DNA from: a virus
Length of the DNA: 59,401 bases
IMG/VR virus record: IMGVR_UViG_3300045988_077504
Location: 1 to 59,401 of that record
Reading direction: 5' to 3' (one strand)
In this document: positions 31,517 through 57,372 of the stretch, in pieces
Layout: each line of letters starts with the position of its first letter
Numbering within the stretch: position 1 is the first letter of the stretch
Notes under the pieces: model-generated
Databases searched by the model: none
The model's input: the letters and a program-made list of their open reading frames with translations, nothing else
Told to the model about the DNA's origin: nothing
Position numbers and translations under genes: made by a program

Positions 31517-31556
31517 TGCTTTTGTTATTATGAAATTTATATATGAGTGATATTTG

Positions 31557-32901: not shown

Positions 32902-33377
32902 CATTTGCAGTTATTGTACTTTCTTTGATAGGTTCCTCTAATTGGTACTCGATTGGTATCTATGCAGGAGGATCGTGGGTAGGGAGATTACTCTATCCTT
33001 TTTTTCATGCCAGTGTGGTGCATGCCTCACTTAATGCTTGGTGTTTTATATGCCTAATGTTTATCTATGACATAAAACTTACGAGGGTATTCGTAGCGTA
33101 TATTGTATCTGTAAGTTTTCCTATTGATACTTTATCATCCTTTATATCATTTCCACCTTTGCCAACGGTGGGAATGTCGGGTATTGTATTTTTTTTATTT
33201 GGTTCTATCTCCTTTGAAGTAAGAAAGAAACTTTACTACCAGTCGTGGATGCTGTTCTATCTTATTGTTGGTTTCTTCTTCCCCAACACTAATGCTTGGT
33301 TACATCTGTATTGTTATTTGTGTGGGGTCGTGTTTTCACTTCTTAACTATCCTATAACAATATGCAGAAAGAAGTAG
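32841..33377 (+). CDS. Rhomboid-family intramembrane serine protease
   Basis: 178 aa with about 6 TM helices. It has the HxxxxHxxxN motif (HASVVHASLN, H56 at 33006..33008 and N65 at 33033..33035), GxSG (GMSG, Ser113 at 33177..33179) and a late His (WLHLYCYLCG). It overlaps the upstream ORF by 61 nt and terL by 16 nt. Confidence 0.7.
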   Translation: MQGKEKTFRRKKEKATSLLLAFAVIVLSLIGSSNWYSIGIYAGGSWVGRLLYPFFHASVVHASLNAWCFICLMFIYDIKLTRVFVAYIVSVSFPIDTLSSFISFPPLPTVGMSGIVFFLFGSISFEVRKKLYYQSWMLFYLIVGFFFPNTNAWLHLYCYLCGVVFSLLNYPITICRKK

Positions 33378-37971: not shown

Positions 37972-40900
37972 CTATTTACGTGTAGCATTCATCTCCTCAA
38001 TCATCTGCTTTTTCAATGCTGTAAGTTCATTATCGATAACCTTACGTTCGTCATCGTCTGTTGCCTCTTTCATTTCAGCATAGAGACCGTCAATTTCTTT
38101 GTTATAGTCCTCGAAAATCTCATAGCGTGCATATTCAAGAGAGTTATAGAGGAAGTCAATCTTCTCGGCATAGTCAAAAACACCATTATCTGTGTCTTTT
38201 TCGTAATGCTTTATCCTTGCCTTTAGCTTGTCATGTTCCTCTTTTGCTCGGTAGTACTCGTTGTTAATGGCACGCGACTCTGTACGTTCGTCTCCATTCT
38301 TCAAAATTCTATTGAGTACCAAGAAACTTCTTGGGTCATATTCTCTTTGCCCTGCAATAGTCTCCGCACTCTTAGTAAGTTTGTCGATAGTATTAGAGAC
38401 ACCACCGAAATAACCATTAAGAATGTATTCAATCTTTGCAGGATTGAGGTCAATCGCCCCCTTTGTGTAAGCATCGCCTCTAGTTGCTTCATTGAGCAGC
38501 TTTGATAATCCTAAAAGGTATTTGTTAGCACTCTTGTAAGCCTTTGTCCATTCTGGCATATCTTTATTATAAGGAGTGTCTTTATAGATAGGCATACCCG
38601 TCCAACTCTTATTGGTATAAACTTCAGCAAATGGTTTTGCTGCACTTGGTATAAACGCTTTCAAACCTCCTTCACCCTCTAAGAAATCTATAGGAAGAAT
38701 CTGTGTAGCCTGACCAGCAATGGCTCTGCCGAGTTCTTCGTTGGTGAAATGTTCCTTACCACTCATTGCGCTAACCATTAACTCGCCCATGCCATATATA
38801 GCACGGTATTCTGTAGGTAATGGTATAGATACCCATTGGTCGCCAGCCTTAAACAAGATATTGCTACGTCTTACATATTCAGGTAAGTTCCAATAACTAT
38901 TCTTGTTGTCATCGTCGCCGTCTCCCATACCCATTCCTGCTACCAAAGCACCGAGTATGAACATCGTTGCTGCTGCCGTAAATGCTTTTGCAGGGTATTT
39001 CTTGAATTGTCTGCCAAAGTTTGTTGTTCCTTGTATGGCTGCATTCCAGAATACAAAGCCACTACGTCCAAGTCCTGAAAGGAAAGCACTTGTATTGCCA
39101 AGTTTCGTCTGACCAACTGCTCCCATAAACTTTGCGCCACTGCCTTTCTTATTGAAATTCACAGAGATTTCCTTTGCATCATAGATAGAACGGTCTATTG
39201 TTCTTCCCATTTCTCGTGATGTGAGGAATGCTGCAAAACGTGCGCTGTTCTCAACGGCACGGTTGTACTCGTCCAATCTCTCTCCAAGCAAATTGATAGC
39301 CTTTGTTATACCAAGCTTGCCATTAGCACGCTTCAACTCTCTGCGAATGTCGTTCTTATGCTGCTCTATATCTCTCATATTGGCATAACCAGTTTCGCCA
39401 CCATTCATCATAAATTGATAGAATGAACGTTCGAGGTCGTTATCCATATTGAGCTTACCGTTTATATGCTTAGTAAGAAGTATCTTTACCTGTACCGGAT
39501 TGCATCTTCCAATGTTACGATGGAATCGCAACGCATAGTTTGGACTCTCCTTTACCCATACCATTGAGTTAGCATAAAGCATATCTCGAATGAAGTTCGA
39601 CACAACAAAATCAGGGTTACGTGTTGTATAGAATGCGCTCAACTGTCTATTTACCATTTCGCCAACTTTTAAAATAGCACCGATAGGACCTGAATTGTCA
39701 TTATCAGGATTAGTTTGTCCGTTAAGGGCTTGTGCTGCTCTTGGGTTGCCGTTAATAGTCAAGACATAATCTCTACCACCACGTTTAACAAGAACCTGAT
39801 GCTGCTTCAAATCCCTACTTTCTACGACACGATATGGTACATTGATGGTATCCTTGCCATGCTTATACTTTTCGGGTTCTTTCTCTGCGAGTTCTTCCAT
39901 ACGTGCCTCAAAGTCTTGCAGCTTCTTTTCAATATCATCTGCTGAGTCTGTGTCTTCTATGTTATTAGGGAAGACTGGTTTCCACTCATCGGTTACATCG
40001 TCATACTTCAACCATAAATCACTCACACTAACAAGGTCGCTTGGGTGGTTAAGAGCAAAGTTTAAGAATTTCTGCTTTACCAGTTTATTCCTATTACCTT
40101 GTGTTATCGCACTTTCTGCCATACTTTGCATGTTTGCAAATGGGTCATCTGCTTTTGAAGTACGACCCCTTGCAACCTTAATCGGAGCATTAAAAGCACT
40201 TTGACGATGAGTAAGGTATGCGTATGCTTCGCCACTTGTCTTTTCATCAAAGCCACGAAGTGGAATGTAAAACTGATACATACTCTTTATTTTATCGTAT
40301 GTATCCTTATTCATCATACCGCACTCATAACTTTTTGATAGAGTGGCATTCGTAACATCGTTTACCTTTTTCCATAACGCTGTTGTATCATTGTTCTGCT
40401 CGTAATCTGCAACCATTCTTCCAGCCTCCGCTTCTGCGTCTTCCACAGTATCTGTTCCTGTTAAGGCAGTGAGACCTGCATAATCACGCTGTCGAGCATC
40501 TGCAAGATAATCATCGAAACTTTTCGTACTATTAGGGTGTGCCTGTTCATTTGCTTTGAACGCCTCAGTAGCATCACGTTCCGCCATAACCTCGTTACGC
40601 TCCAAACCATGTTTTGCCATCATATAATCAACAAGCTCTACACACTCTTGCTCATTCTTTGAAAGCTTAGCAACCTCATCAAGCATTGGCTTAAAAACAA
40701 GGTGTGCAAAAGCATCTGCCTCAGCCTTATTGACAGAAGATAATCTATTTTCTCCTAAATAGGCATTCTCAAACCCTGCTATATCTGCAATATCCGTTTT
40801 CGTACCTTCCGCTTTCAGCACTGCCTCCATAGCCTCTTTGAGTCCAAGCATACTATCCTGCAAAGCCTCCTGAGTTTGGAACATTGCTCTGCTTACACGA

Positions 40901-43900
40901 TGCTCATAAATATCACGAGCGTCAACGCTATCCTCTCCCTCACGGAACAAAACATCATCTTCCTCAACATTTTCTTCCGAAATATTTGGATTCTCAAAAT
41001 CTTTCACTATATTTGCAACAGAAATGAGTTTCTTTCTAACGTCCGCGGAATTGTACTGCGGTTTAGATAGAAGCTCATTTTTCGTTTCTTCTATCCAACT
41101 ATTACGAAAATCTTCACTCATATAATCAGCAAGACCGTCATTAATCCAACCAATAATATTCATACTATTGCGATAATGAACACTACGTACACTATTAACG
41201 AATATTCTACCAGCCTTACGGTTAGTTTCGATAGCTACAACATAATTACGACCACCATGTTTAAGGTTTGTAAGAATAACATTACTACCAATATGAGTTG
41301 CACTTCTAAAGACTGCAAATGGATTTTGAATCGCATTAGGCAAGTCTTTGACCTCATTCAAATCAAATGGATGATTTTCCTGCATTGATTTATCTGACAA
41401 TCTGCTTGCAACAAGTTCGATAGGAAGATTAGGAATACCAGTACTTAAAAGAATACTGCTCGGCATTCCCAAATCATAAACATAACCTTTTGGCAATGTT
41501 CCGTCAATCTGTTGTTGCAAAGCATCATTAAACCGCTCATTCACCTCGTCAAATCCAACAGAAGCCTCTGCAACCTCGTCCGACGTTACCTCTGTCTGCT
41601 CTGCATAATTACCCACCTTTAACTCATACTGCTTTGCCACATCTTCCGCTTCTCCTAAGATACTGCGGTATCTTCCTGGCTCTTTTAGGTTCTGATAGCT
41701 GCGCCAAAGGATATAGCGAAGTTCGTTATCACTCAACTCGCCTCCTTGCCAGTTTTCAAAACCAATAGAGTGGAGTAGCTTCATAAATAGTTGTTTAATC
41801 TTTGTCCAGAAACTATAAGGCATGCGCTCAAAGTCGGTTTGCTCTGCAAGTGATGCAAGGTATTCCTCTGTCGCTGTGCGGAAGTCCCAGCCGTTCTTGG
41901 TTGCAAGTTTTACAATTTCACGTCTAATCTCAGGCTCTGCATTTTGGTAAACATTATCAAGGAATGTATCGAAATGGTCGCCAAAGAGTTTGCGCAAGCC
42001 ATAATGTGCTACAGCTTCGTGTAATAAAGTTTTTTCTACATCTGCTATATTGGCATGATTAGGGATAACTATAGTTATCTTACCTGTACTCTTTGAGTAG
42101 AAACCTTTAGCGTTTGCACGCTTACCGTCTAACTGGCTGGCATCTGTAACCACTTCTACATTGTCAAGATGTAATGTGTCTGCAAGCTCCCCTACACGAT
42201 TAGTCATTCTACTACGTTCACGTTCGGCAAATGCTGCACGTTGCTTGGCTGTACGGTTAGACTTACCCATCATTTTTGCCCAAGGGTCGTTGATGAAACT
42301 CAACTCATCATCGGTTAATGTTCCCTGACCATCACGCATAAGGTATTCTTCGTCTTCTGATGCTTCAGAAAGAGTAGAAACAGCCTCAACATCTTTATCC
42401 ATTTCGGCATACTTCTTTTCTTTTTCCTCCATCTCCTGTTTCATCAGCTCGGTGTATTCCTCGTATTTCGCCTTAGCTTCTTCAAGTTCTTTTTCGAATT
42501 CAAAAGGCTTACCCTCTCTTGCTTGCATCTGCTCAAGTTCGGATTTATGGCGAGCTATGTTCTGCTCTGCATATCCAACGATATTCTCGAAATCATTACC
42601 ATTAATAACATTTTCGGTAATATCCTCAATAGCATTGCGAAGCAAGCCATTCTTTACAGGTACATCTGTAAGACCTAATTCCTTTTGAGAATACAACATC
42701 TTACGTGTAGCCTTAGTAAATATGTTGATGCCCTGCGATGTTGTTTCCTTAGCAACTTCTGTGCGCACAACAAAATCTAAGCCGTCAATATTTACGTTGA
42801 GGTTACTCGTGTATGAGGCATTTGCACTATCCTTAACCTTTTCGCCCTCGTCTTTGACCTTTTTGTTATGCTCCTTAAAGAAGTCTGCCATAGCTTCTAC
42901 ACTGTCAAACTTCTGCTTGCCGATGGTAATAGTCTTGAACGTGCCATCAGGATAAGTTTTGCGTACAAGAGAAAGGTTCTTTTCATTTGTGTCCTTACGC
43001 TCCTGCTCCTGCTTTATCTGACCGTTAAGACGTGGTTTTGCGTTATGGATATACGTTTGGTCGGCTTCCCACTGACGCTTTCTGCTCTCAAACTTACGTG
43101 CATTCTTCTCGGCTTGATTTTTCAGCATAGCATACTCGCTTCCTGAAAGTTGTGCTACGGTGTCTCCAAAAGCATCTTCTTCCTCTTCGAGAATACGGTT
43201 CTCCATACTGTTTGCCATAAGCTGCTTGCCGTTCATAATACTGTCTGCAATAGCACCTTTGGTTTTCAAACGCTGATATGCAGTAACATCAAGACTGTCT
43301 TCAACGCCAAAACGAAGCACACGTACAGGCTTATTCATTTCCTTGTGAATATTGCCTTGTCTTAGAATACGTCCGTTACGCTGTGTGTAGTCCATAGGTC
43401 GGTTTGGTGCATCAAGATGTATAAGTGTATGCAAGCGTTCCTGAATATTCACACCAGTACCGAGGGTGAATGTACTACCCATGATAACACGAACCTCCCC
43501 ACGATTTACCTTGTCAAAGATTTCAAGTTTCTTCTTCACAGTCATTCCCGACTTCATTACAATAATCTGCTTCTCTGGAACACCTGCCTTGATAAGTTTC
43601 TCTCTAACATCTTCGTATAGATTGAAACCGCTCGTCTTATTCTGATAGTTATCTGCAAAGATAGCAATAGTACCCTTATAGTCTGCCGTTTCTTTCAGAG
43701 TACGCAATGTTTGGCGCACAGCCTCATTGGTTTTGCTGTTAGCATCATCTTCTGCACTTGCATCAACCAAACGGGCATCCACGGCTGCTGCTTTGGCAAT
43801 ACCATACATAGTAAGTGGAATATGAGAATTCTCTTTCTTCTCCTTGCCACTCATATTGTCGTACTTTTCAAGCTCGCCCTTTACAAACTTCATAATACCA

Positions 43901-49900: not shown

Positions 49901-52900
49901 TCTCTTTCAGTTCCTCCTTGATGGGCTTCTGTCCCATCGCTATTCTCACTTCGTCCTCCTGTTGTAGAGTCTCCAGTGCTTCCTTGTTCCCCTCGTTGGC
50001 TTGTTGTAGTACCGCCAACCAGTACATCGTTTCTTTGTTGTCCATTGTAATCTATGTTTAATACTTCTTTTATCGCTTCCGCCAACGTCCGTGGTGTGTT
50101 GTCTGGCTGCTCAAATAATGTTTCCTCTTGAGTACCTTGAATAAGGTCGTACATCTTGTTGAACGTACCTTGTATAAAGCTCTGATTGTCGCCCTTATAC
50201 ATTGTAACAAGCAACAGCGCAAAGTTACTATATTTCTCCGCAGGAAGATAGCTTTCACCTGTGTTATCGTCAATAGCATACTGACGCTTCCATGACTCAA
50301 CAGCCATTCGAGCATCCTTGTGATTGGTTGCAGCCATAAACTGAGCATCATGCGAAAGCGCATAATAAGCCATAATAGAGTTTTGAAGTTCCTCTATCAT
50401 ACGTTCACTCTGTGGACTATCATAATCTCTATAAGCAGTTGCAAGGATAGCCTTTTGCGCCTTGGCAGGTAAAGCATTGAACATTTCTTCGAGTTGCGTG
50501 CTGCCACCCTCGAAGATGCTCTGATACATTATGCCTTTAAGGTCATTCTTGGCTTCTGCCGTCAAGTTACCTCTGCTATCAAATGCACTCTTATACTGTG
50601 TAGGAGTGATTGAGCCATTGGAGTTCATCCACTTTAGCACATCAACGCCATTGCGGTCTATGAGTTCAGAGAAAGACATATCTTCATCTGTAGAACGTAA
50701 AAGAAGACTTGCAAAATTCTTCATCTTATCGCCCAACTTCTTCACTACATTCTTAGGCTTGATGCGTTCTACACCTCCGCTTTCAGTGTCGCTTGCCACG
50801 AATTGACCCAGTGCAATGGCATCATCATCGTTCACATCAAGCATATTAACGAGTATAGGTTTCTCCATAGCTCTGACCTCATCAGGATTAAGTCCCAATT
50901 CTGCTGCATGGTCTATTAAGTACTGTTTGTATTTCTCGGCTTGGTCTTGATGCGCTGCCCACATCTCTTTCAATGCAGCACTTCTGTTATTACCTTGAAT
51001 AACCTCACCTCGGCTGTTTACCGTTGGCGCACCTGTGTATGCAGTAACAGACGATGTTATTTCCTCGGGACGAATGTTTGAAGCAATCTTACGTGCAGCC
51101 TCCTTACTTGCATCGTCCTTGCGCTCCTTTGGCTGAGCCTCGTCAATGAAGTGTAGTGGGTTACGCTGCCCGTTCTTATGGCTTGGCTGTAATTCATCAG
51201 CGTCAATAAGTGCTACATGTCCAGATGGAATATTCTTATCATCAAACTTTACCTGCACATCTTTTCCTTGTACGGCTGCAAGTGGCTCTTGTCTGTCCAC
51301 CTTATCACCGTTTACACGTCTGTAACCTCTTGCACGTGCATCACTCGCCTTGTCTTCCACAAAATCAGGAACACCGTTCAATGCTTCACGCTTCTGTCGC
51401 TCAGCTTCCTCACGCTCTGCACGCTCCTTATCCTCCTGCTCCTTGCGAAGACGTGTAGCTTCTCCCGCTTTACGGTTCTCTTCTGCATGAATAGCAGCTT
51501 GACGCATACGATTGGTTGATGCAATCTTCTTCCAATGTGCAAGAGTTTGCTTCGCCTGTTCTATGGCTGCACTGCGTTCTTTCTCGGCTGCAATCTTCTC
51601 GGCAATGGTTGTGCCACCCTTTGTCTTGGCTTTCCCTGCCTTTTTAACGGCAGCCTCCATGTCGGCTACCATATCATCGGCAACCGTCTGCGCCATTGCT
51701 TCATCGCCTCCAGTCTGCTCTACAATAGCATCCCATGCTGTCTCAGGTTCTGCCTGTTCATATATAGGCTGTCCTTGCTCGTCTTTTGGAATACGCTCAA
51801 AGGCTGATAGGGATTGCTGAGGATTTTCCGCACTTTCTACACTTTCGGTTTGTGCTAGTTCGCCCTCAAATTCATTGTTGGACGTCTGCGGTGTTTCCTC
51901 CTTTGTCTGAACATCAGGATTGAGTGCATCAAGTTCTTCTGCGCTGAACAGATTAACCTTTTTGCCATTGATTGGCTCTTCTGTGTAAACCTCAAACTTT
52001 CCGTCTTCGTTTTGGTCTGCCGTGATGCTTCCACGTACTGGCATTCCCTCTTCATTAGTGAGCGTTACCTCATCGTTGAGGCTGTACGTGTTGGAATGCT
52101 GGCTTTCTGCCGCCTTTGCCTCCTCACGCTGTTTCAACGACTGACTTAAACGCAACATATTATCACCATCACTCATCTCCTGCACCTGCGCCTTGGGCAA
52201 CATTGTAGGCTGCTGTGAACCGTCTACACTTACCATTACCATATTTGGTATTGGCTGACCTGTCTTTTCATCAACTGCATCGCCTATTACCTGTAATGTA
52301 TGCTGCGAGTTGTCTTCTCCAATAACTGAATAGGTGTCTCCAACATTGAACTCAAGTGTTCCGTCAATCTTATTTGCTTCCTGCTGTGCATAAGTCTGAC
52401 GTATGCTTTCCGCTGCATTAGCTTTCTCTTCTTCTGCGTTGGTAGCCTCATCAACAGATAAGATTGCAGCAGGTGCTACCATTTCTGTTTTTCCAGTTTC
52501 GGCATCACGTACCATAATACTTTCACTTGATTTAGCATGATCAATGCCTGTTCCGTCATCATTCATCTGTGCATAACCACCAACAACATACACCTTTCGG
52601 TTATCCACCTTCATAGTGGCAGGATAGATATTGCCATCTTCGTGTGTATGGTTATCAATAGCCATATCGCTTGCCTTAATTGCATCGTCGATGTTGTCCT
52701 TAACCTGACTAATCATACCATTGTATGCAGATTTGGCGTTTAGGTAGTCAATTGCAGCTTGCTTCTGTTTATCGTTGAGGTTCTCCTTATTATCAAGGAA
52801 GTCATCAACGCTATAACCTGAGACATCTTCTGTGCCTAATGCTTCGCTTAACTGTTGTTCAGTATACTCATAGCGTGTCTTGATGTCATTCTTCTGTTCA

Positions 52901-55077
52901 TCGCTCGCTTCGTGTCCCTGAATATAAGCATTATCCATAGACTGATGAATAATAGTCTCATCATCTTTTGCTCCCGTCTCTTCTAACTCTTTAGCCTTTG
53001 TAGATTGGGCAGTGTTGAAGCCTCTGAACTTAATAAGATTACCTGCATAGTTCAACGCTGCTTTCTTCTCTTGCTCATGGAGGTTAGGATTTTGAATGAT
53101 ACCATAAACAACGTCTGCCATTTCCTCGTTGGTAGCATTGTCTATTTTTTCTCTAAGAGGTTGCCATTTCCCCTGTGTCATTCTATAAGCAGCAACGGTA
53201 TCGGCATCCTTAACGCTTTTCTTCGTTTTGTAGTAGTCTACTGCGCCAGCAAGCTTCGGAGCTGCTTCCATTGCGCCAGCAGAGAATAACATACCACCCC
53301 AAATATCTGCCTGTGTACGACCATCAAACAAGTCGCTCATCTTATTGTCGCCAACAAACATGGAGTTGAGGACGATGTTTGCCTCTTCCTCTACAACTTC
53401 ATTGATATATCCATTAACTCCTACACGGTTCATCACTTTGGTTCCCAATTGAGCGTACTGCGAAGTACCAGCACGATTTAACGCTGCTGTTACCTTACTA
53501 AGACCTATTTTATCAAGACCTTTTGCAATAGTTTTACCAATGGGTAAGCCTTCAAGGTGCGCACCGAGCTTTTCTGTATAGTATTCAAGTGTCTGTGCTA
53601 TCTCTCCTTTACGAATAGCTGTACCCCAGTCTTCGCCACCAGCAAAACGATAATTGCCATGCTCGTCCTGTTCTACATGTCCGAGGTGTCGTTGTCCAAT
53701 ATCCGATGCAGTACGTGCTGCACCAGTAGTATTAGCCATAACAACACCTGCAGCAATGTCTCCCAGAGTAGTACCAGTGTATTTGATTAACTTCTTTGCC
53801 AATGCCTTAGTAGCTACCTTTTCGGCTATCTTTGTTCCTAACTTAGTTCCTGCTCGTGTTAATCCTGAAAGACCGTCTGTTGCAGCGAACTCTATCATAA
53901 AAGGAATAGCTTGTGCGGTAATTCCACCTGCACGATACATAAAGTTACGATTGTTGCCATACTTATTTTGCGCCACTTGGTTCTTGTAAGTATTCTCTAT
54001 CATCGCTTGGTCAGCATATTTCTCTCGCTGTTTCTTCTTGCCACCATAGTTGAGCATAGCAGAAGTATCAAGCATATCAGTGTAGCCAAAAGTCCAAAAA
54101 GAAGGGTTCTTAAAAGTATCTGTTACACCACGCCAAAAACCAGCCTCAGCCTTATCACGTTCAGCTTCGAGTGCAACTATACGCTGTTGGTTCTGATTTT
54201 TTGCTGCTAATAAGGCTTTCCATTCATTGTCTGCCAAACGTCCATTACTTGTTGCTGAGTTGAAAGTATGAATAGCACCGCCACTACCACGTGGCATGTC
54301 TCGCCAACTTGGTTTAAGTGCTTCTGCATCAAGTTCTGTTCCTCTTCTACCCAGTTCACGTGCTAAACGTTTCCTTTCAGCGTATGCCTCCTTTAATTCG
54401 TGGTCGATTGGGTGTAGTTTTGCTTCTTTAGCGTCATCAATCTGATTTTGTTCAATATCTGCCAGTGTGCGGTCGCCCTGATAGACATTACCAGCCTCGG
54501 TAATGTAGGTAGGTTCTAACTTACCTGTTTTTGCGTTTAGCTTGTTCTCTCCCTGCACTACATGCTTGTTTGCAGTCATTGTAGGCTTCGTCCCACCTAT
54601 ACCCAAAGTAACACGTTGTACGTTAAATGGGTTCTTCTGTTGTGCCTTAGCACGCTGCATGATTGCGTCGGACTGCTGTTTTCTGCGCTGAATTCCTTGC
54701 TGAATACCTGCTACAAAATTCATTGCTTGTGCCTTTTCTGCTGCGGTCATTGGTCTACCACCAGTGGTAGGCTTGCTTACAGATGTAGTATGTGGCTTAT
54801 GTGGTGCTGCTTGGCGTGGCTGTTGTTTTGGTTGAGGCTTAGCAGGTGCTGAAGGAAGATGCTCTAATGAAAAAGCGTGCAGCCCTTGCGCCTTAGCATC
54901 ATGGTAATGCGACAATGGTATGTCGTAATCTCCCTTTTTGCTATCACGCATACGAATGGTTGCACCTTTATAGGCATCTGCATACGACTGAATGCCGTAC
55001 TTATCCACATTCTCTTTTGATACCTGATGTTGCTTACCATCGGATGTTGTAATCGTGTATGTAATCTTATTTGGCAT
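37972..55077 (-). CDS. Giant polyvalent virion-associated protein (5701 aa)
   Basis: A single uninterrupted 17,106-nt ORF. Modules were read by eye and several were confirmed at nucleotide level (NVPF 46912..46923, DEAH 44383..44394, HEAVAH 42004..42021). It is flanked by the portal-like gene and internal-virion-like genes. Confidence 0.9.
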   Translation of the reverse strand: MPNKITYTITTSDGKQHQVSKENVDKYGIQSYADAYKGATIRMRDSKKGDYDIPLSHYHDAKAQGLHAFSLEHLPSAPAKPQPKQQPRQAAPHKPHTTSVSKPTTGGRPMTAAEKAQAMNFVAGIQQGIQRRKQQSDAIMQRAKAQQKNPFNVQRVTLGIGGTKPTMTANKHVVQGENKLNAKTGKLEPTYITEAGNVYQGDRTLADIEQNQIDDAKEAKLHPIDHELKEAYAERKRLARELGRRGTELDAEALKPSWRDMPRGSGGAIHTFNSATSNGRLADNEWKALLAAKNQNQQRIVALEAERDKAEAGFWRGVTDTFKNPSFWTFGYTDMLDTSAMLNYGGKKKQREKYADQAMIENTYKNQVAQNKYGNNRNFMYRAGGITAQAIPFMIEFAATDGLSGLTRAGTKLGTKIAEKVATKALAKKLIKYTGTTLGDIAAGVVMANTTGAARTASDIGQRHLGHVEQDEHGNYRFAGGEDWGTAIRKGEIAQTLEYYTEKLGAHLEGLPIGKTIAKGLDKIGLSKVTAALNRAGTSQYAQLGTKVMNRVGVNGYINEVVEEEANIVLNSMFVGDNKMSDLFDGRTQADIWGGMLFSAGAMEAAPKLAGAVDYYKTKKSVKDADTVAAYRMTQGKWQPLREKIDNATNEEMADVVYGIIQNPNLHEQEKKAALNYAGNLIKFRGFNTAQSTKAKELEETGAKDDETIIHQSMDNAYIQGHEASDEQKNDIKTRYEYTEQQLSEALGTEDVSGYSVDDFLDNKENLNDKQKQAAIDYLNAKSAYNGMISQVKDNIDDAIKASDMAIDNHTHEDGNIYPATMKVDNRKVYVVGGYAQMNDDGTGIDHAKSSESIMVRDAETGKTEMVAPAAILSVDEATNAEEEKANAAESIRQTYAQQEANKIDGTLEFNVGDTYSVIGEDNSQHTLQVIGDAVDEKTGQPIPNMVMVSVDGSQQPTMLPKAQVQEMSDGDNMLRLSQSLKQREEAKAAESQHSNTYSLNDEVTLTNEEGMPVRGSITADQNEDGKFEVYTEEPINGKKVNLFSAEELDALNPDVQTKEETPQTSNNEFEGELAQTESVESAENPQQSLSAFERIPKDEQGQPIYEQAEPETAWDAIVEQTGGDEAMAQTVADDMVADMEAAVKKAGKAKTKGGTTIAEKIAAEKERSAAIEQAKQTLAHWKKIASTNRMRQAAIHAEENRKAGEATRLRKEQEDKERAEREEAERQKREALNGVPDFVEDKASDARARGYRRVNGDKVDRQEPLAAVQGKDVQVKFDDKNIPSGHVALIDADELQPSHKNGQRNPLHFIDEAQPKERKDDASKEAARKIASNIRPEEITSSVTAYTGAPTVNSRGEVIQGNNRSAALKEMWAAHQDQAEKYKQYLIDHAAELGLNPDEVRAMEKPILVNMLDVNDDDAIALGQFVASDTESGGVERIKPKNVVKKLGDKMKNFASLLLRSTDEDMSFSELIDRNGVDVLKWMNSNGSITPTQYKSAFDSRGNLTAEAKNDLKGIMYQSIFEGGSTQLEEMFNALPAKAQKAILATAYRDYDSPQSERMIEELQNSIMAYYALSHDAQFMAATNHKDARMAVESWKRQYAIDDNTGESYLPAEKYSNFALLLVTMYKGDNQSFIQGTFNKMYDLIQGTQEETLFEQPDNTPRTLAEAIKEVLNIDYNGQQRNDVLVGGTTTSQRGEQGSTGDSTTGGRSENSDGTEAHQGGTERESRGNRGQGNLESLAERQGYLGETKEVKISDEVDEDGSPFVKTSTGTTVFGEIKKESGLTPAPIKLSLGNSKYGLIHLEKRHGDQIRGAGFDTVEEFVEFVCKNYKQIKQGENSLGEQNGTYLIQIEDEHNNTLYIELSTDGKYWGVNSGGVFRKGYGKNKKEVWPASEVQSKQSVADSTLREKDKADTPISPNGNVPTTSADKDKQSSDTKQEKERKTSQNNEVREDLFAMAERVAAEDKAKRTRKAEEAKVDINPTDAQKEAGIYTKGHIKVAGMDVTIEQPKGSIRRGKDADGKEWESEMHNTYGYIRGTESVDGDHIDIFLSDTPETGNVFVIDQVNKDGSFDEHKVMYGFSDMESAKKAYLSNYEDGWQGLGNITEVSKEEFKKWIDSSKCKTKPFAEYSSVKTEGDVKVEHPIESSERTKPETKNRLVTDERYEELKKRMKAKLRGQLNMGVDPEMLAIGAEMAVYHIEKGARAFSEYAKGMIADLGDAIRPYLKAFYNGARDLPEMAELSKEMTSYSDVSAFDVATIGNEGEEVKPTVFDTAEQISNEATVEHNAQEEAKQTTETGDVDNDVYSITKQHNNKKDVDIWVVRGKERSDKDVYMQRKQIAKEHDGYYSSFRGVNGFVFNTPEDAQAFAENVFDEQPVGKEVEKPADTSNIPKKINVASLMEQLKSEGKVKLSDHEEPIEEEKGEKTKENQPKSGNQKQNNVSSHVENDLFGGLFSESEPKSQDNEDNQRTRRENRKSDDGVSQRQSSERRTADPEQLDANPTERRTERKGDSGVQSGTTEKRSSDERPTGRLSRLNTTNNHAERGVDYAPISVDARIEANIKAIELANDLVESGEKATPEKMRVLRKFSGWGGLGKAFSIGTPISRKLQQMLGAEAYEQAVMSANSAYYTPAYVIDTLWDVAKQLGFKGGNVLEGSAGIGNIIGQMPMDISDNSHIQAVEIDGTSGNILSLLYPEANVEIQGFEQTRVPNGSVDLAITNVPFVTGLRVNDTTGDSDLSKKFHNIHDFCIAKNVRKLRDGGIGIFISSNGTLDSSQKLRDWLVSDGNADIIGAFRLNNKTFGGTGVTSDIIVIRKRVGGKVSPNAIDVSTVTGERSVDYNTGKEKKVKGTYVPVIKHLSMDYNKYFIEHPEMMAGKMEFAFEHGDTYRATSKGLYPTSDKQQEKMLQDFVNSFAHMKDESQAKKEEKPVNVYEALGDDVKEGSMLINKDGKLCVAQLGQAVPLDLNTNKVKGHTKEECFKAYTAIKKALDDVLHYQSENEDDKGLQPLLDELNKVYDDFVNTYGHLNKNVSIAFLRNDVDYPNVFSLERYEETGDKDGKRVQKFSKTDVFGKRVIEKDVEPQPKNVKDGIIVSIYKTGKIDIPYISTQLSMSEDDVKEEIISCGLGFEDPTSKQVVVSYQYLSGNVREKLKQAEANNENGTYNGNIKALKEVVPNSIPAHLIEFNLGSSWIAPELYNEFVKEKTDIDVKFTAAGGTWFMKAPDWGLNNDKNRTSGVHSEVFNEYIYGHKLIEAAIQNKTVSVSRVQKHYDGSTETITDKEATQACASKIDEIRQDFKDWARNKMQSDPAMSERMEAVYNDLFNNYVPVDIPSEYIPEHFGSATHSITLRPHQAKAVVRGTMQPLMLAHEVGTGKTFTLISTAMEMRRLGTAHKPMIVVQNATVGQFVASAKQLYPNAKILTLEDSDRSAEGRKNFYAKIRYNDWDMIVVPQSTFEFIPDSEERQMAFIKDKIEEKMLVLEKMKEADDSERNPITRQAEKEIQQLEDELASISGQLADKRTAKDEKKRAVTKQNTEVKAREMLDRRTDDTENFDDMGIDALLVDEAHEYKHLGFATAMQRGVKGVDPSYSKKSQGVYLKTQAVLQKNHGRNVIFATGTPISNTAAEIWTFMRYLMPADTMKDYGIYYFDDFVRNFGNIQQMLEFTTSGKFKENNRFAGYIDLPELVRIWSSVSDTVRTKDAGGVSDKIPEMETGKAQDLYLSQTKALRGIMKFVKGELEKYDNMSGKEKKENSHIPLTMYGIAKAAAVDARLVDASAEDDANSKTNEAVRQTLRTLKETADYKGTIAIFADNYQNKTSGFNLYEDVREKLIKAGVPEKQIIVMKSGMTVKKKLEIFDKVNRGEVRVIMGSTFTLGTGVNIQERLHTLIHLDAPNRPMDYTQRNGRILRQGNIHKEMNKPVRVLRFGVEDSLDVTAYQRLKTKGAIADSIMNGKQLMANSMENRILEEEEDAFGDTVAQLSGSEYAMLKNQAEKNARKFESRKRQWEADQTYIHNAKPRLNGQIKQEQERKDTNEKNLSLVRKTYPDGTFKTITIGKQKFDSVEAMADFFKEHNKKVKDEGEKVKDSANASYTSNLNVNIDGLDFVVRTEVAKETTSQGINIFTKATRKMLYSQKELGLTDVPVKNGLLRNAIEDITENVINGNDFENIVGYAEQNIARHKSELEQMQAREGKPFEFEKELEEAKAKYEEYTELMKQEMEEKEKKYAEMDKDVEAVSTLSEASEDEEYLMRDGQGTLTDDELSFINDPWAKMMGKSNRTAKQRAAFAERERSRMTNRVGELADTLHLDNVEVVTDASQLDGKRANAKGFYSKSTGKITIVIPNHANIADVEKTLLHEAVAHYGLRKLFGDHFDTFLDNVYQNAEPEIRREIVKLATKNGWDFRTATEEYLASLAEQTDFERMPYSFWTKIKQLFMKLLHSIGFENWQGGELSDNELRYILWRSYQNLKEPGRYRSILGEAEDVAKQYELKVGNYAEQTEVTSDEVAEASVGFDEVNERFNDALQQQIDGTLPKGYVYDLGMPSSILLSTGIPNLPIELVASRLSDKSMQENHPFDLNEVKDLPNAIQNPFAVFRSATHIGSNVILTNLKHGGRNYVVAIETNRKAGRIFVNSVRSVHYRNSMNIIGWINDGLADYMSEDFRNSWIEETKNELLSKPQYNSADVRKKLISVANIVKDFENPNISEENVEEDDVLFREGEDSVDARDIYEHRVSRAMFQTQEALQDSMLGLKEAMEAVLKAEGTKTDIADIAGFENAYLGENRLSSVNKAEADAFAHLVFKPMLDEVAKLSKNEQECVELVDYMMAKHGLERNEVMAERDATEAFKANEQAHPNSTKSFDDYLADARQRDYAGLTALTGTDTVEDAEAEAGRMVADYEQNNDTTALWKKVNDVTNATLSKSYECGMMNKDTYDKIKSMYQFYIPLRGFDEKTSGEAYAYLTHRQSAFNAPIKVARGRTSKADDPFANMQSMAESAITQGNRNKLVKQKFLNFALNHPSDLVSVSDLWLKYDDVTDEWKPVFPNNIEDTDSADDIEKKLQDFEARMEELAEKEPEKYKHGKDTINVPYRVVESRDLKQHQVLVKRGGRDYVLTINGNPRAAQALNGQTNPDNDNSGPIGAILKVGEMVNRQLSAFYTTRNPDFVVSNFIRDMLYANSMVWVKESPNYALRFHRNIGRCNPVQVKILLTKHINGKLNMDNDLERSFYQFMMNGGETGYANMRDIEQHKNDIRRELKRANGKLGITKAINLLGERLDEYNRAVENSARFAAFLTSREMGRTIDRSIYDAKEISVNFNKKGSGAKFMGAVGQTKLGNTSAFLSGLGRSGFVFWNAAIQGTTNFGRQFKKYPAKAFTAAATMFILGALVAGMGMGDGDDDNKNSYWNLPEYVRRSNILFKAGDQWVSIPLPTEYRAIYGMGELMVSAMSGKEHFTNEELGRAIAGQATQILPIDFLEGEGGLKAFIPSAAKPFAEVYTNKSWTGMPIYKDTPYNKDMPEWTKAYKSANKYLLGLSKLLNEATRGDAYTKGAIDLNPAKIEYILNGYFGGVSNTIDKLTKSAETIAGQREYDPRSFLVLNRILKNGDERTESRAINNEYYRAKEEHDKLKARIKHYEKDTDNGVFDYAEKIDFLYNSLEYARYEIFEDYNKEIDGLYAEMKEATDDDERKVIDNELTALKKQMIEEMNATRK
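41758..42180 (-). other. Domain in the polyvalent protein: zincin-like metallopeptidase (aa ~4300-4440)
   Basis: KTLLHEAVAHYGLRKLFG carries an HExxH motif (HEAVAH at 42004..42021). Confidence 0.6.
43258..45060 (-). other. Domain in the polyvalent protein: SNF2/DEAD-like helicase (aa ~3340-3940)
   Basis: Motif I LAHEVGTGKTF, motif II LLVDEAHEYK, motif III IFATGTPISN, motif VI YTQRNGRILRQGN. Confidence 0.85.
46633..47445 (-). other. Domain in the polyvalent protein: N6-adenine DNA methyltransferase (aa ~2545-2815)
   Basis: Motif I VLEGSAGIGNIIG (47098..47118). Motif IV DLAITNVPF, an NPPF/Y variant (46912..46923). Confidence 0.8.
48733..49125 (-). other. Domain in the polyvalent protein: inorganic-pyrophosphatase-fold module (aa ~1985-2115)
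   Basis: VTIEQPKGSIRRGKDADG...NTYGYIRGTESVDGDHIDIFL...VFVIDQVNKDGSFDEHKVM parallels E. coli PPase (VVIEIPA...KYEIDKESG...[20 protein letters not shown]...VGVLKMTDEAGEDAKLVAV). Confidence 0.6.
49423..49740 (-). other. Domain in the polyvalent protein: small His-motif module, possibly a BECR-fold nuclease (aa ~1780-1885)
   Basis: SKYGLIHLEKRHGDQIRGAGF...TYLIQIEDEHNNTLYIELSTDGKYWGVNSGGVFRKGY. The resemblance to polyvalent-protein RNase modules is from memory only. Confidence 0.3.
50938..51270 (-). other. Domain in the polyvalent protein: ParB/sulfiredoxin-like (aa ~1270-1380)
   Basis: IDADELQPSH...IASNIRPEEITSSVTAYTGAPTVNSRGEVIQGNNRSAALKEMW resembles the ParBc pattern (...Pi.v......i.G.hR..A). 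Confidence 0.45.
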
Positions 55078-56341: not shown

Positions 56342-56821
56342 TTAGAAAGGAAAAGAACCAGCTGCACTACTTACACCTTGTACTGCTTGCCCAATTGCCT
56401 CTGCTTTTCCTTTTTCGATTTGGTTCAACTGTTCATTTAGTGCTGCATCACGCTCCCTATACTGTCCTTCGATAGCATCTTTGCGCTGCTCTCCATTAAC
56501 GGCTATCGTTGCAGTAGCATCAGCAAGAGCCTTATTGTTGGCTTCTTTGGCAGCTGCCGTACTCTCGTCAGTTCCACCCATTACTGCTTGCGCTCCTGCT
56601 GCTGCCTTATTACGGTTCTTGATATTCTCTTGTGTCAATGTAAGAATACGCTGCGCATCAGCACGCTGTGTTGCGTCCTCATTATATCGCCTATCGTACC
56701 AATCTTGATTTGCTTTTTTCTGCGCCTCTACATTGGCTTTCATCTTCTTCATAGCCTTTGAAGCAGAGATACCACCAAATATGCTACCTACTGCTCCAAT
56801 TGCTGTTCCAATTAGTCCCAT
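56342..56821 (-). CDS. Small virion-associated protein with an N-terminal glycine-zipper membrane helix
   Basis: 159 aa. MGLIGTAIGAVGSIFGGISASKAM followed by an Ala/Gln-rich helical region. It is the first gene of the late block. Confidence 0.65.
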   Translation of the reverse strand: MGLIGTAIGAVGSIFGGISASKAMKKMKANVEAQKKANQDWYDRRYNEDATQRADAQRILTLTQENIKNRNKAAAGAQAVMGGTDESTAAAKEANNKALADATATIAVNGEQRKDAIEGQYRERDAALNEQLNQIEKGKAEAIGQAVQGVSSAAGSFPF

Positions 56822-57323: not shown

Positions 57324-57372
57324 CATTCGCATACCATTTTCGTGGGATTACGAAAAACGTAACAGTCGTATA

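Follow-up and report, generated by a model that had tools for sequence, protein, structure and literature searches.

Phages and conjugative elements encode polyvalent proteins, in which, as set out in passages of Iyer, Burroughs, Anand, de Souza and Aravind (2017), 2 to 15 unrelated effector domains share one polypeptide. The hub domains of these proteins (MPTase, SNF2 helicase with methylase, DdrB-ParB and MuF-C), an HEXXXH variant and their predicted packaging are all described there. In parallel, work on podovirus DNA ejection has yielded a gp14-gp15-gp16 operon rule, by which three adjacent genes run from small through medium to large within the structural genes (PMC8954989). Phage N4 offers a parallel, as its third ejection protein is a 3500-aa enzyme (PMC13434306).

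Here we analyse a viral DNA of 59,401 nt (IMG/VR record IMGVR_UViG_3300045988_077504; 'the window' denotes this whole stretch) and its largest gene. We consider it likely that the product of this gene is an internal-virion (ejection) protein, the third and largest in a temperate Prevotella phage of podovirus type whose portal is P22-type and whose capsid protein is SU10-type. The features discussed below are collected in Table 1.

Table 1. Features of the giant gene, its protein and the neighbouring genes in the window.
Feature	Residues	Coordinates	Strand	Basis or remark
Giant polyvalent gene	5701 aa, 638 kDa	37972..55077	-	ORF list and translation
Conserved N-terminal frame	~370-1270	51268..53970	-	in 102-103/126 long representatives
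LPD14, inside N-terminal frame	~500-606	53260-53580	-	E 2e-4 here (weak)
ddrB-ParB domain	1287-1412	50842..51219	-	Pfam ddrB-ParB 1.5e-26
His-motif module, possible PBECR-type RNase	~1797-1874	49456..49689	-	PBECR3 E 0.024, sub-threshold
InPase (family-I, OB-fold inorganic pyrophosphatase)	1984-2116	48730..49128	-	Pfam InPase 2.4e-57
Swappable central cassette with DarB-type block	2156-4246	42340..48612	-	P0121 comparison; BS-TP4 gp3
N6-adenine DNA methyltransferase	2536-2816	46630..47472	-	motif I LEGSAGIG, motif IV NVPF; PHROG 11801 DNA methyltransferase 9e-84
SNF2/SF2 helicase	3345-3908	43354..45045	-	GTGKT, DEAH; Pfam ResIII, SNF2-rel_dom, Helicase_C
Zincin-like metallopeptidase (MPTase) candidate	4244-4515	41533..42348	-	HEAVAH aa 4353-4358 (42004-42021), EEY 4404-4406
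MuF-C domain (PBECR-family predicted RNase)	4562-4653	41119..41394	-	Pfam MuF_C 5.5e-19
Conserved C-terminal carrier module	4701-5701	37975..40977	-	~1000 aa, helical
TM-like helix	5366-5384	38926-38982	-	only such segment in the giant protein
LPD38	5393-5575	38353-38901	-	Pfam 4e-41
Portal protein		35938..37938	-	Pfam P22_portal 1e-41; PHROG 156 portal 6e-108; directly downstream of giant gene, 33-nt gap
Second cassette gene, low-complexity, gp15-like ejection-protein position	415 aa	55084..56331	-	position and size only
First cassette gene, T7-gp14-like internal virion protein, Gly-rich hydrophobic N-terminus	159 aa	56342..56821	-	Pfam T7_gp14, weak
Terminase large subunit		33362-35455
SU10-type capsid protein		30083-31702

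An intact giant gene beside the portal

The ends of the window are identical over 119 nt, which gives a unique genome of 59,282 bp; the giant gene takes up 28.9% of it. The original prediction of an uninterrupted 5701-aa frame covering about 29% of the genome was correct, as the frame starts with ATG and runs unbroken in both the ORF list and the translation. Its unusual length, and nothing else that we found, speaks for an artefact of assembly or for several genes fused in a pseudogene-like manner. Yet four independent assemblies, made from different samples with different pipelines, contain the same 5701-aa gene call, and a fifth has a 5708-aa version; three of the 5701-aa loci are 100% identical to the window over the stretch compared (blastn); relatives are collinear with the protein over its full length, and GC content and composition are even along the gene. 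Since the gene recurs in four assemblies of different samples and its GC content is even, misassembly, a concern raised at the outset, is excluded, and we reject the artefact reading as having practically no chance of being right.

The giant gene sits among portal, terminase and virion genes as the third of a cassette encoding 159, 415 and 5701 aa, with gaps of 10 and 6 nt, followed after 33 nt by the P22-type portal gene; the upstream and downstream neighbours are those first claimed. The three genes appear to be co-transcribed. The 159-aa protein matches Pfam T7_gp14 over nearly its full length (E 5.7e-5) at 23.5 bits, below the curated cut-off of 27, and has a hydrophobic segment in its N-terminus. 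A protein identical to it (P0262) and most relatives carry PF24072, in precomputed hits marked weak, and the source names for these relatives read 'virion core protein, T7 gp14 family'. The 415-aa protein has no match in Pfam, NCBIfam or PDB; it is homologous to BKO1-TP3 gp56 and BS-TP4 gp2.

A small/medium/giant order is also found in the phages BKO1-TP3, BS-TP4, BF1-TP2, Stx2-86, BcepIL02 and PEp14. The 159-aa and 415-aa proteins have no detectable sequence similarity to their counterparts in BcepIL02, PEp14 and Stx2-86, so the analogy with these three cassettes is one of position. The order fits the operon rule of PMC8954989, and the giant gene occupies the slot of the largest podovirus ejection protein (the gp16 slot). 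Searches of Pfam, PDB sequences and Foldseek returned no match between the giant protein and gp16 or other solved ejection proteins; it is a positional and functional analogue of gp16, not a member of its family.

This location bears on a quite different reading, in which the protein would stay out of the virion, be made late in infection and work in the cytoplasm as an enzyme complex, perhaps methylating progeny DNA, and would do nothing at entry. A methylase-helicase could indeed act on replicating DNA, and packaging of the window protein is argued by analogy with homologues. We nevertheless regard such a complex as very improbable, given a gene within the virion/ejection block, beside the portal, and homologues found in purified virions of two distant phage groups.

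Domain content of the giant protein

The giant protein carries ddrB-ParB, InPase, methylase, SNF2 helicase, MuF-C, LPD14 and LPD38 domains together with a peptidase candidate. Five of these (ddrB-ParB, InPase, MuF-C, LPD14 and LPD38) are defined in passages of Iyer et al. 2017, and on this basis the chain qualifies as polyvalent by the definition of that paper, as had been proposed. The hub or phage-only domains DdrB-ParB, SNF2, MuF-C, InPase and LPD38 score above Pfam cut-offs, and the MPTase is a candidate by motif and predicted topology.

Towards the N-terminus, a region first described as hydrophobic helices turned out to be an LPD14 domain, weak in the giant protein itself and above cut-off in the equivalent segment of three of five relatives. 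The segment is not TM-like, its maximum Kyte-Doolittle score being 1.07. The ParB-like and pyrophosphatase-fold modules expected next were both borne out by strong Pfam matches. DdrB-type ParB is a predicted nuclease/NTPase according to passages of Iyer et al. 2017. The InPase match (193 bits) covers 134 of 135 profile positions, and the domain also matches the C-terminal InPase of the solved portal protein 9b41_L (1.3e-31), a fusion that provides a precedent for an InPase domain inside capsids. A DGDHIDI stretch in the domain, read by eye, resembles the PPase signature. The His-motif module lying between these two is present in 20 of 126 representatives; its family assignment fared less well, with 15-21 bits against a PBECR3 cut-off of 30 and, in the best-scoring relative, matches to PBECR3 (3.7e-4) and PBECR1 (3.5e-3) that are all below cut-off. 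The module is weakly PBECR-like, and a PBECR-type RNase is possible.

The adenine methyltransferase with NVPF, the SNF2 helicase with DEAH and the likeness of the pair to DarB of phage P1 all held up. In particular, the methyltransferase aligns with P1 DarB (LEGSAGIG/NVPF against LEPSAGTG/NVPF; 30% identity, E 2e-22), and the helicase is collinear with it, with GTGKT/GLGKT and DEAH/DEGH aligned (E 1e-17). Over 97% of the block, the helicase is collinear with the DarB-like giants of PEp14, BcepIL02, LASTA and PBC5. Judged by these alignments, the block is a true homologue of P1 DarB.

Further along, the 'HExxH zincin' placed near residue 4350 was a misreading. The motif is HEAVAH, that is, HExxxH and not the canonical HExxH of MPTases; its H, E and H and a downstream E-Y pair are invariant in an alignment of 42 sequences. 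E4405 (invariant) and E4404 (at least 90% conserved), on a helix ~50 residues past the motif, are candidates for the third metal ligand. An AF2 model of the region has a helix, three strands and then the motif helix, an order consistent with a zincin fold, with pLDDT >90. No zincin was matched by Foldseek against PDB, by a PDB profile search or by Pfam, and the similarity to the C-terminal domain of N4 gp50 is a 39-column local match at the motif with an hhalign probability of 1.5%. An HEXXXH clade within polyvalent-protein MPTases is described in passages of Iyer et al. 2017. We treat the region as a candidate MPTase on the strength of its motif and predicted topology. The sole literal HExxH in the giant protein is a chance match inside the DEAH box of the helicase.

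If active, the peptidase could make the protein a polyprotein precursor, the 638-kDa chain being cut before packaging, as with P1 DdrB, or after ejection, so that the individual enzymes would be the working units. Its HExxxH...EEY residues are invariant, and it is the most conserved part after the C-terminal module (115 of 126 representatives); autoproteolysis is proposed, and P1 DdrB processing cited, in passages of Iyer et al. 2017. The same passages describe N4 vRNAP, ArdC and TraC1 as having MPTase domains yet being delivered uncut. Moreover, no cleavage sites are identifiable from the sequence of the chain, and the peptidase fold is without a Foldseek or PDB-profile match. Processing of this kind is possible but short of probable, and it is compatible with the ejection-protein explanation, of which it concerns one step only.

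The 'second small module' that follows is a MuF_C domain, at 68.7 bits against a family cut-off of 27.6; MuF-C is classed as PBECR in passages of Iyer et al. 2017. Beyond it lies the C-terminal module, modelled by AF2 with pLDDT 78 and pTM 0.74. No fold match was found in PDB. By Foldseek, the fold recurs at the C-terminal end of many phage giants, and the BFVD proteins that share it are annotated as LT_GEWL transglycosylase, RelA/SpoT or methylase. The module was matched in 6,562 protein cluster representatives.

The TM helix predicted in this C-terminal region was confirmed as a TM-like segment, and relatives keep it at a similar place. Its distance from the C-terminus is ~335 aa in the giant protein, 331-352 aa in BcepIL02 gp70 and the proteins of three Bacteroides phages, and 268 aa in PEp14; of 126 representatives, 118 have it 250-480 aa from that end. 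No part of Stx2-86 gp35 exceeds the threshold for hydrophobicity. The suggestion of membrane-active termini thus stands for the C-terminal module and its TM-like helix, and fails for the N-terminus on the Kyte-Doolittle maximum given above. Even so, the segment is a single hydrophobic helix that lies within a predicted helical bundle, and it may not anchor the protein in a membrane.

Two conserved frames around an exchangeable payload

Sequence comparison reveals a frame-and-cargo architecture. In a module census of 126 long representatives, both protein ends are conserved in relatives and the middle is variable. One relative, P0121, is 95% identical over aa 1-2155 and 98.8% identical over aa 4247-5701 and carries an unrelated insert of 1.26 kaa in place of the 2.1-kaa DarB block; BS-TP4 gp3 is also without this block. 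The differing annotations of the BFVD proteins that share the C-terminal fold point the same way. The search for swapped modules in related phages, suggested with the original prediction, thus found one in the DarB-block cassette.

Two features initially singled out, size and domain combination, are unexceptional. Among the best 141 cluster representatives, 27 are at least 5701 aa long and the longest reaches 6,927 aa, and relatives of 4,515-5,553 aa occur in cultured phages. At least two relatives, P0130 and P0145, have the same module order minus the His module (P0130 also minus MuF-C). This kind of giant protein is already known and is very common in related phages.

Proposed role during infection

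In the explanation that we favour, the protein has three parts. The first is a conserved N-terminal frame (aa ~370-1270) with LPD14. The second comprises variable central effectors: DdrB-type ParB, a possible PBECR RNase, InPase, the DarB-type adenine methylase and SNF2 helicase, and the MuF-C RNase, all as predicted activities. The third is a conserved C-terminal frame made up of the putative HExxxH metallopeptidase and the ~1000-aa helical module with LPD38 and the hydrophobic helix. A few copies would be packed in the capsid via the conserved frames. On infection, the protein would leave the capsid by way of the portal and tail, threaded like a string of beads, before or with the DNA, and the C-terminal module would contact the cytoplasmic membrane and contribute to an ejectosome. 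The effector domains would then act ahead of any phage gene expression. The DarB block may act in cis to shield the entering DNA from restriction, the nucleases and pyrophosphatase may blunt host nucleic-acid or nucleotide-based responses, and the metallopeptidase may cut the chain into separate units.

Packing in the virion and injection with the DNA are probable, given the gene position and the detection of two homologues, JC1 gp69 and phi24B gp47, in virions by mass spectrometry. The suggested role as an ejection conduit is plausible in view of the gp16 slot and the positionally conserved single hydrophobic helix in the C-terminal module.

Alternatively, the protein could be pure counter-defence cargo, packaged and injected with no part in the DNA conduit, its two frames serving encapsidation only. 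P1 DarB is dispensable cargo, the central effectors of the giant protein are freely swapped, and searches linked it neither to gp16 nor to any ejectosome component of solved structure. A further point in favour comes from passages of Iyer et al. 2017, according to which the C-terminal 1,400 aa of N4 vRNAP, including its MPTase domain, are required for encapsidation. On the other hand, the gp16 slot is taken by the giant gene, with no other large ejection protein candidate evident in the cassette, and the lone hydrophobic helix keeps its position. A lytic transglycosylase domain, the hallmark of the T7 gp16 N-terminus, is annotated in some of the proteins that share the C-terminal fold, and a structural homologue in phage PTXU04 is required for plaque formation. 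We consider a cargo-only role unlikely.

A more speculative extension of the ejection-protein explanation concerns the C-terminal ~1,450 aa (HExxxH peptidase plus LPD38 module). These could form an uncharacterised, very widespread carrier for podovirus-type protein injection, which would replace gp16 as the inner-membrane ejectosome component and drag any upstream cargo through the tail, the peptidase then freeing the cargo in the cytoplasm. We find this doubtful as it stands. If true, the P0121 swap, with its near-identical backbone and 2-kaa cassette, would represent whole-payload exchange by recombination between fixed frames.

For annotation, the analysis identifies the largest gene in a common group of human-associated Prevotella/Bacteroides temperate phages. 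GenBank relatives carry the label 'DarB-like antirestriction' at best and otherwise 'hypothetical protein'; the domains should be named and the product called a virion-borne polyvalent ejection protein. To specialists familiar with the Bcep22, N4 and Stx-phage cases this will be unsurprising, and the useful points are organisational, not new in kind: two fixed frames surround an exchangeable payload, and a recent payload swap documents that exchange is happening. The C-terminal module spans thousands of protein clusters, with no solved structure and a conserved lone hydrophobic helix. The family is a good system for learning how a phage packs a protein of 0.6 MDa and passes it through its tail, and a natural scaffold for the delivery of chosen enzymes into Bacteroidales.

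Comparison with known phage systems

Among the closest known systems are temperate Bacteroides phages (PMC12694917, Gut Microbes 2025), with BKO1-TP3 gp55 (5553 aa), BS-TP4 gp3 (5391 aa) and BF1-TP2 gp68 (3633 aa). All three share the genome type and cassette of the window, and the portal gene adjoins in BKO1-TP3 and BS-TP4. BKO1-TP3 gp55 is collinear over almost its entire length at 46-66% identity, without the His module and MuF-C; BS-TP4 gp3 has a different block where the window protein has the DarB cassette; BF1-TP2 gp68 has only InPase, peptidase and C-terminal module in common with it. The article on these phages does not mention DarB or antirestriction, and passages of it do not discuss the giant gene.

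The Bcep22-like (Lessievirus) and PEp14-like podoviruses encode the giants Bcep22 gp75, BcepIL02 gp70 (4667 aa), JC1 gp69 (4515 aa) and PEp14_00027 (4914 aa), which share a collinear methylase-helicase block (28-31% identity, E 1e-156 to 1e-172). BcepIL02 gp70 matches the DarB block (E 2e-156) and, in addition, the C-terminal module (23% identity, E 2.9e-42). The genes of these giants, each closing a small/medium/giant series of virion genes, occupy ~22% of the genome. In JC1, mass spectrometry of CsCl-purified virions detected gp69 (the BcepIL02 gp70 orthologue), gp67 and gp68 (PMC9144972). In pairwise BLAST these giants had no detectable similarity to MuF-C of the window protein, or to anything in its first 2,100 aa, which hold the LPD14 frame, ParB, the His module and InPase. 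These phages also differ in having Proteobacteria hosts and lysis genes, not the portal, after the giant gene.

The giants of Stx phages, phi24B gp47 (2811 aa) and Stx2-86 gp35 (2783 aa), are half the size of the window protein; their gene is preceded by small genes and one of ~420 aa. The alignment of Stx2-86 gp35 covers aa 4244-5571, the peptidase region and LPD38 module (22% identity, E 2.4e-52). The Stx giant has the N-terminal domains LPD5 and LPD1, and HExxH at the position aligned with HExxxH in the window protein. Abundant in the virion proteome and invisible in cryo-EM maps, phi24B gp47 has been proposed to be an encapsidated ejection protein (preprint 10.64898/2026.04.10.717836). The PTXU04 polyvalent protein, required for plaque formation (PMC11879866), has a C-terminal part that matches our model in Foldseek (E 2e-19, TM 0.54).

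P1 DarB (2255 aa) has a homologous N6-adenine methylase with NVPF and then an SF2 helicase in the same order, and its gene adjoins the portal gene, as does the window giant gene. It differs in that the two enzymes form a protein by themselves, with neither the N-terminal nor the C-terminal frame, and identity is 21-30% over part of the block. P1 packages DarB, which counters restriction in cis; P1 is a myovirus, and DarB packaging needs DarA, Hdf, DdrA and other proteins. The window protein is more likely to be packaged through its own conserved frames than through partners of the DarA/Hdf/DdrA type.

The N4 vRNAP gp50 (3500 aa), with gp51 and gp52, is the giant third member of a three-gene ejection cassette; it is tripartite (N-terminal domain, enzyme, large C-terminal domain) and includes an MPTase domain. 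A few copies are packaged, and these leave through a channel of ~35 Å as loosely linked domains. The enzyme carried is an RNA polymerase, and there is no significant homology beyond the short peptidase-motif match. The passages of Iyer et al. 2017 treat such proteins as a domain network, from which the fixed N- and C-terminal frames, the gp14-led cassette and the conserved hydrophobic helix are absent. Finally, T7 gp14/gp15/gp16 and P22 gp7/gp20/gp16 share the gene order and size gradient of the window, which has a gp14-like first gene (weak match) and a P22-type portal; compared with the gp16 proteins of T7 and P22, the giant protein is 4 to 9 times larger and carries enzymes predicted to be directed at the cytoplasm.

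The giant gene

The giant gene was confirmed by ORF calling and translation as one uninterrupted frame, and its product is calculated at 638 kDa and pI 5.4. The same 119 nt stand at both ends of the window, so the unique genome measures 59,282 bp, of which this gene takes up 28.9%. The original prediction named a misassembled chimera as its possible undoing, and this is excluded. An identical copy of the 159-aa protein encoded upstream occurs in 113 blocks of a public assembly collection; of the six places listed, four, which come from different samples and assemblers, share the 5701-aa gene call, and a fifth has a gene call of 5708 aa. In blastn, three of the loci with the 5701-aa call are 100% identical to the window over the compared stretch. 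GC content along the gene is even (0.41-0.46) and no internal repeats were found within the protein. Near-identical DNA of the gene has no match among 50,697 phage records, where relatives appear at the protein level only. A 278-aa ORF antisense to the gene (opposite aa ~1860-2140) most likely results from the strong purine bias of the coding strand and is no genuine gene.

Features of the window and modules of the giant protein; the last column counts the family representatives (at least 2,500 aa, drawn from the 141 best) that contain each module
Feature	Position	Strand	Description or match	Representatives (of 126)
Terminal repeat	1-119 and 59283-59401		119 nt	
SNF2-type helicase, free-standing	6557-7990	+	477 aa; within RecT/exonuclease recombination module	
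934-aa ORF	14014-16818	+	PHROG 32516	
Second giant ORF	20916-28931	-	2671 aa; PHROG 14959, 2552 bits	
Terminase large subunit	33362..35455	+	697-aa ORF; PHROG 2, 5989, 24361	
Portal	35938..37938	-	P22-type, 1e-41 (Pfam)	
Giant gene	37972..55077	-	Uninterrupted ORF, ATG start, 5701 aa	
Antisense ORF	48652-49488	+	278 aa	
415-aa gene	55084..56331	-	Low-complexity	
159-aa gene	56342..56821	-	T7_gp14 match, near full length	
Direct repeats	57367-57517		Two sets	
Integrase	57648..59129	-		
LPD14 region				103
N-terminal region following LPD14				102
ddrB-ParB	aa 1287-1412		Pfam E 1.5e-26	30
His module	aa ~1797-1874		PBECR3, PBECR1, sub-threshold	20
InPase	aa 1984-2116		Pfam E 2.4e-57	81
Methylase			PHROG 11801	24
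ResIII, SNF2-related, Helicase_C	aa 3345-3908		Pfam	25
Peptidase	aa 4353-4358 (motif)		HExxxH, probable	115
MuF_C	aa 4562-4653		Pfam E 5.5e-19	59
Hydrophobic helix	aa 5366-5384		Score 1.79	
LPD38	aa 5393-5575		Pfam E 4e-41	
C-terminal module				126

Domains of the giant protein

Domains were assigned by tiled profile searches along the giant protein (Pfam, with PHROG for the methyltransferase), and the Pfam matches bear out the ParB-like, pyrophosphatase-fold and SNF2 helicase modules read earlier from the sequence. A portal protein of solved structure (9b41 chain L) carries a C-terminal domain that the InPase also matches (1.3e-31). The proposed N6-adenine methyltransferase with its NVPF motif has no match in the Pfam copy searched; it is established by PHROG 11801 'DNA methyltransferase' (9e-84) and by a pairwise alignment in which P1 DarB is collinear with the giant protein across both enzymes. 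Motif I reads LEGSAGIG in the giant protein and LEPSAGTG in P1 DarB, both have the catalytic NVPF, and in the helicase GTGKT and DEAH stand against GLGKT and DEGH. Over 97% of its length, the 1,430-aa methylase-helicase stretch (the DarB block) can be aligned at ~30% identity with proteins annotated 'DarB-like antirestriction' in phages in culture, among them PEp14, LASTA, PBC5 and BcepIL02.

Other modules are fainter. LPD14 scores under the cut-off in the giant protein itself (E 2e-4), and because the corresponding segment exceeds it in three out of five diverse relatives (35-88 bits, cut-off 27), we accept LPD14 by transitivity. The His-motif module gives PBECR3 and PBECR1 matches that stay below threshold, in the giant protein and in relatives alike, and it has no detectable kinship to MuF-C. 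The hydrophobic, membrane-active N-terminus did not hold: the Kyte-Doolittle mean of its Gly/Ala-rich helices reaches at most 1.07, too low for membrane segments. An NCBIfam search gave weak helicase matches and nothing further, and in PDB sequence searches the two halves of the giant protein hit nothing but the InPase fused to a portal and, weakly, helicases.

A zincin with an HExxH motif had been placed near aa 4350. The motif there is HEAVAH, i.e. HExxxH; HExxH itself occurs only once in the protein, by chance, within the helicase DEAH box. In a 42-sequence alignment H4353, E4354 and H4358 are invariant, as is a downstream E-Y pair (4405-4406). An AlphaFold model of the region (pLDDT >90 for residues ~20-260) runs through a helix, three strands, the motif helix and more helices. 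A polyvalent-protein metallopeptidase clade with HEXXXH is described explicitly by Iyer et al. (2017). Neither Pfam, a PDB-sequence profile search nor Foldseek linked the region to a known zincin; the Foldseek search was handicapped by the MuF-C half of the model, which is poorly predicted because few aligned sequences contain MuF-C. What stands is a conserved metallopeptidase-like motif with a spacing other than the one first read, and the region is a probable metallopeptidase of unconfirmed fold.

The C-terminal module and its hydrophobic helix

The C-terminal module, modelled with AlphaFold on an 84-sequence alignment, is confidently predicted to be mostly helical (mean pLDDT 78, pTM 0.74). 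Foldseek found no significant match to the model in the PDB (best E 1.3), and the top hits, transporters with TM <0.1, were disregarded as unrelated. Against BFVD the model matches C-terminal pieces of many phage proteins (TM 0.5-0.74, E down to 5e-52), some of them annotated as lytic transglycosylase (LT_GEWL), RelA/SpoT or methylase. Homology with the C-terminal domain of N4 gp50 was considered and dropped, since a profile of the C-terminal 1,458 aa showed no significant similarity to it, only a local 39-column match that lines up strand and HE motifs at the peptidase (probability 1.5%).

The predicted C-terminal transmembrane helix is the sole TM-like segment of the giant protein and lies just ahead of LPD38. 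From this helix to the C-terminus there are 335 aa in the window protein, 331-352 aa in BcepIL02 gp70 and the proteins of three Bacteroides phages, and 268 aa in PEp14. Of 126 representatives, 118 have a hydrophobic segment 250-480 aa before the C-terminus, with a median of one segment per protein; Stx2-86 gp35 has none above threshold. The position of the helix is kept and its sequence is not conserved. By analogy with T7 gp16, whose C-terminal part inserts into the membrane (PMC8954989), we take this as a sign of a probable conserved membrane or hydrophobic contact.

The probable ejection cassette and its neighbours

On the minus strand the order is integrase, 159-aa gene, 415-aa gene, giant gene and portal, with gaps of 10, 6 and 33 nt between the last four; an SU10-type capsid protein (3.6e-31) is also encoded. 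Pfam T7_gp14 matches the 159-aa protein at E 5.7e-5 (23.5 bits, cut-off 27). Precomputed annotation assigns an identical protein and most of 5,206 relatives to this family, and sources name some of these 'virion core protein, T7 gp14 family'. A PDB sequence search with it returned nothing useful, and the 415-aa protein has no match in Pfam, NCBIfam or PDB sequence searches. BLAST detected no similarity between the two proteins and their equivalents in BcepIL02, PEp14 and Stx2-86. Podovirus ejection genes form a small operon of gp14-like, gp15-like and larger gp16-like ORFs, in which gp15 and gp16 homologues are often recognisable by size and synteny alone (PMC8954989). In N4-like phages the third ejection protein is a 3500-aa virion RNA polymerase, which exits via a ~35 Å channel as loosely connected domains (PMC13434306). 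The giant gene fills the third ejection-protein slot of the cassette.

In two related prophages (L010 and L011, 94.8-98.6% identical DNA) the middle protein has 438 aa, not 415 aa, and the giant protein of L011 has 5708 aa. The middle gene is their most divergent stretch (94.8% against ~98% elsewhere), which suggests that the gene at the gp15 position may evolve faster. ORFs at the place of the terminase ORF in the Bacteroides phages BKO1-TP3, BS-TP4 and BF1-TP2 are labelled 'tail spike protein' in GenBank, probably a misannotation. The 934-aa ORF, distant from the cassette and on the opposite strand, weakly matches the 'internal virion protein' family PHROG 511 (E 7e-5).

Element and host

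At loci L008, L010 and L011, among the six places listed, the integrase end is flanked by bacterial genes (pyruvate phosphate dikinase, tRNA U5-methyltransferase, DHDPS). In the integrated copies L008, L010, L011 and L013, the part homologous to the window begins with the 119-nt terminal repeat, ~30 nt before the 3' end of the pyruvate phosphate dikinase gene. In a 59.3-kb contig (L009) the sequence runs on into the window's other end, and a single 119-nt copy joins both ends. Because host-junction homology starts at the repeat and L009 holds one copy, the repeat looks most simply like an attachment-site (att) core; an assembly overlap alone is improbable. Prevotella amnii, P. bivia and uncultured Prevotella are represented in the 90%-identity cluster of the integrase, and the 159-aa protein has close relatives in P. 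salivae, P. melaninogenica and P. amnii. Together with the host-gene junctions and the probable att repeat, these identify the window as a complete temperate phage of human-associated Prevotella.

The stretch that separates the integrase gene from a divergent 102-aa ORF holds two short direct-repeat sets, the first of three overlapping 20-nt copies at 10-nt spacing (CGTAAGCAAA-like decamer) and the second of three ~26-nt units (CAAACTATGCAAACGATGCAAATGCA) at ~40-nt spacing; they may be integrase arm sites or operators. As one SNF2-type helicase gene is free-standing and another helicase lies inside the giant protein, the genome encodes two SNF2-like helicases. The second giant ORF lies downstream of the capsid gene block, a position shared with BKO1-TP3 gp44, which adjoins a reverse transcriptase, and with BS-TP4 gp14, its possible counterparts. 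BS-TP4 gp14 is reported as a diversity-generating retroelement target (PMC12694917). Such a retroelement seems absent from the window, since it has no reverse-transcriptase-sized ORF beside the 2671-aa ORF and no template/variable repeat pair.

Fixed frames, exchangeable cargo

In pairwise comparisons, the peptidase region and the C-terminal ~1,000 aa are common to all relatives. A search with aa 4701-5701 against 1.84 billion cluster representatives gave 6,562 matches at E ≤ 0.001 and 1,974 at E ≤ 1e-30, and the matched stretch is almost always the C-terminal end of a very long protein. The 141 best representatives have a median of 4,714 aa and a maximum of 6,927 aa, and 27 of them are at least 5,701 aa long, so the size held to be exceptional is not. 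The module census (see table) shows terminal frames and a central cargo.

The exchange is clearest in one relative (P0121, 4,889 aa), whose identity to the window protein is 95% across aa 1-2155 and 98.8% across aa 4247-5701. In place of the 2,091 aa between these frames, the entire DarB block included, P0121 has 1,261 unrelated aa that contain an HExxH motif of their own and a MuF-C-like domain. Payloads have here been swapped recently between genes that are nearly identical elsewhere. Nor is the domain combination singular, as had been thought: at least two relatives, P0130 and P0145, keep the same module order minus the His module, P0130 also lacking MuF-C.

Probable packaging and injection, and comparison with known systems

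We consider it likely that the giant protein is a packaged, injected polyvalent ejection protein with frames and cargo. By position and analogy, it would exit via the tail as beads on a string, with the C-terminal module contacting the inner membrane; the effectors would act ahead of phage gene expression and the DarB-type block would protect the DNA against restriction in cis. The peptidase might cleave the giant protein itself, and proteolytic processing is a tentative suggestion. That the protein truly helps to form the DNA conduit, beyond being cargo, is less likely than not.

The same cassette occurs in three isolated temperate Bacteroides phages, BKO1-TP3 (gp57/gp56/gp55; gp55 5553 aa), BS-TP4 (gp1/gp2/gp3; gp3 5391 aa) and BF1-TP2 (gp70/gp69/gp68; gp68 3633 aa). 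The paper on these phages (PMC12694917) makes no mention of DarB or antirestriction, and its passages covered here leave the giant gene undiscussed. Bcep22-like and PEp14-like podoviruses encode 'DarB-like' proteins of 4,515-4,914 aa after two virion-protein genes. BcepIL02 gp70 has in common with the window protein both the DarB block (E 2e-156) and the C-terminal module (window aa 4736-5564; 23% identity, E 2.9e-42). In JC1, gp67, gp68 and gp69 (4515 aa) were all found in CsCl-purified virions by mass spectrometry, gp69 with 51 unique peptides (PMC9144972). Stx2-86 gp35 (2783 aa) aligns with window aa 4244-5571 (E 2.4e-52) and corresponds to phi24B gp47 (2811 aa; LPD5, LPD1, LPD38, MuF-C), which is abundant in the virion proteome and invisible in cryo-EM maps; its authors propose an encapsidated ejection protein, part of a trans-periplasmic conduit (preprint 10.64898/2026.04.10.717836). 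By homology with the proteins of these two independent proteomic reports, the giant protein would be packaged in the virion. It may also be required for infection, by homology with one structural homologue: in coliphage PTXU04, plating drops strongly when the 2198-aa polyvalent protein is knocked down (PMC11879866), and the C-terminal part of that protein is a Foldseek hit to our C-terminal model (E 2e-19, TM 0.54).

The idea of packaging and injection is thus not new, having been proposed and partly tested for homologues. Every element of the packaged counter-defence interpretation has a precedent: the polyvalent-protein class (Iyer et al. 2017), the giant DarB-like virion proteins known from Bcep22-like phages (JC1 paper, 2022, PMC9144972), a PHROG 'DarB-like antirestriction' family whose 4,647 profile positions cover aa ~2150-5700, the deposited relatives of 5,391-5,553 aa and the proposal for phi24B gp47. 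To these our analysis adds the scale of the family and a clearer anatomy, in which two frames, a conserved lone hydrophobic helix and a probable HExxxH peptidase accompany an exchangeable payload.
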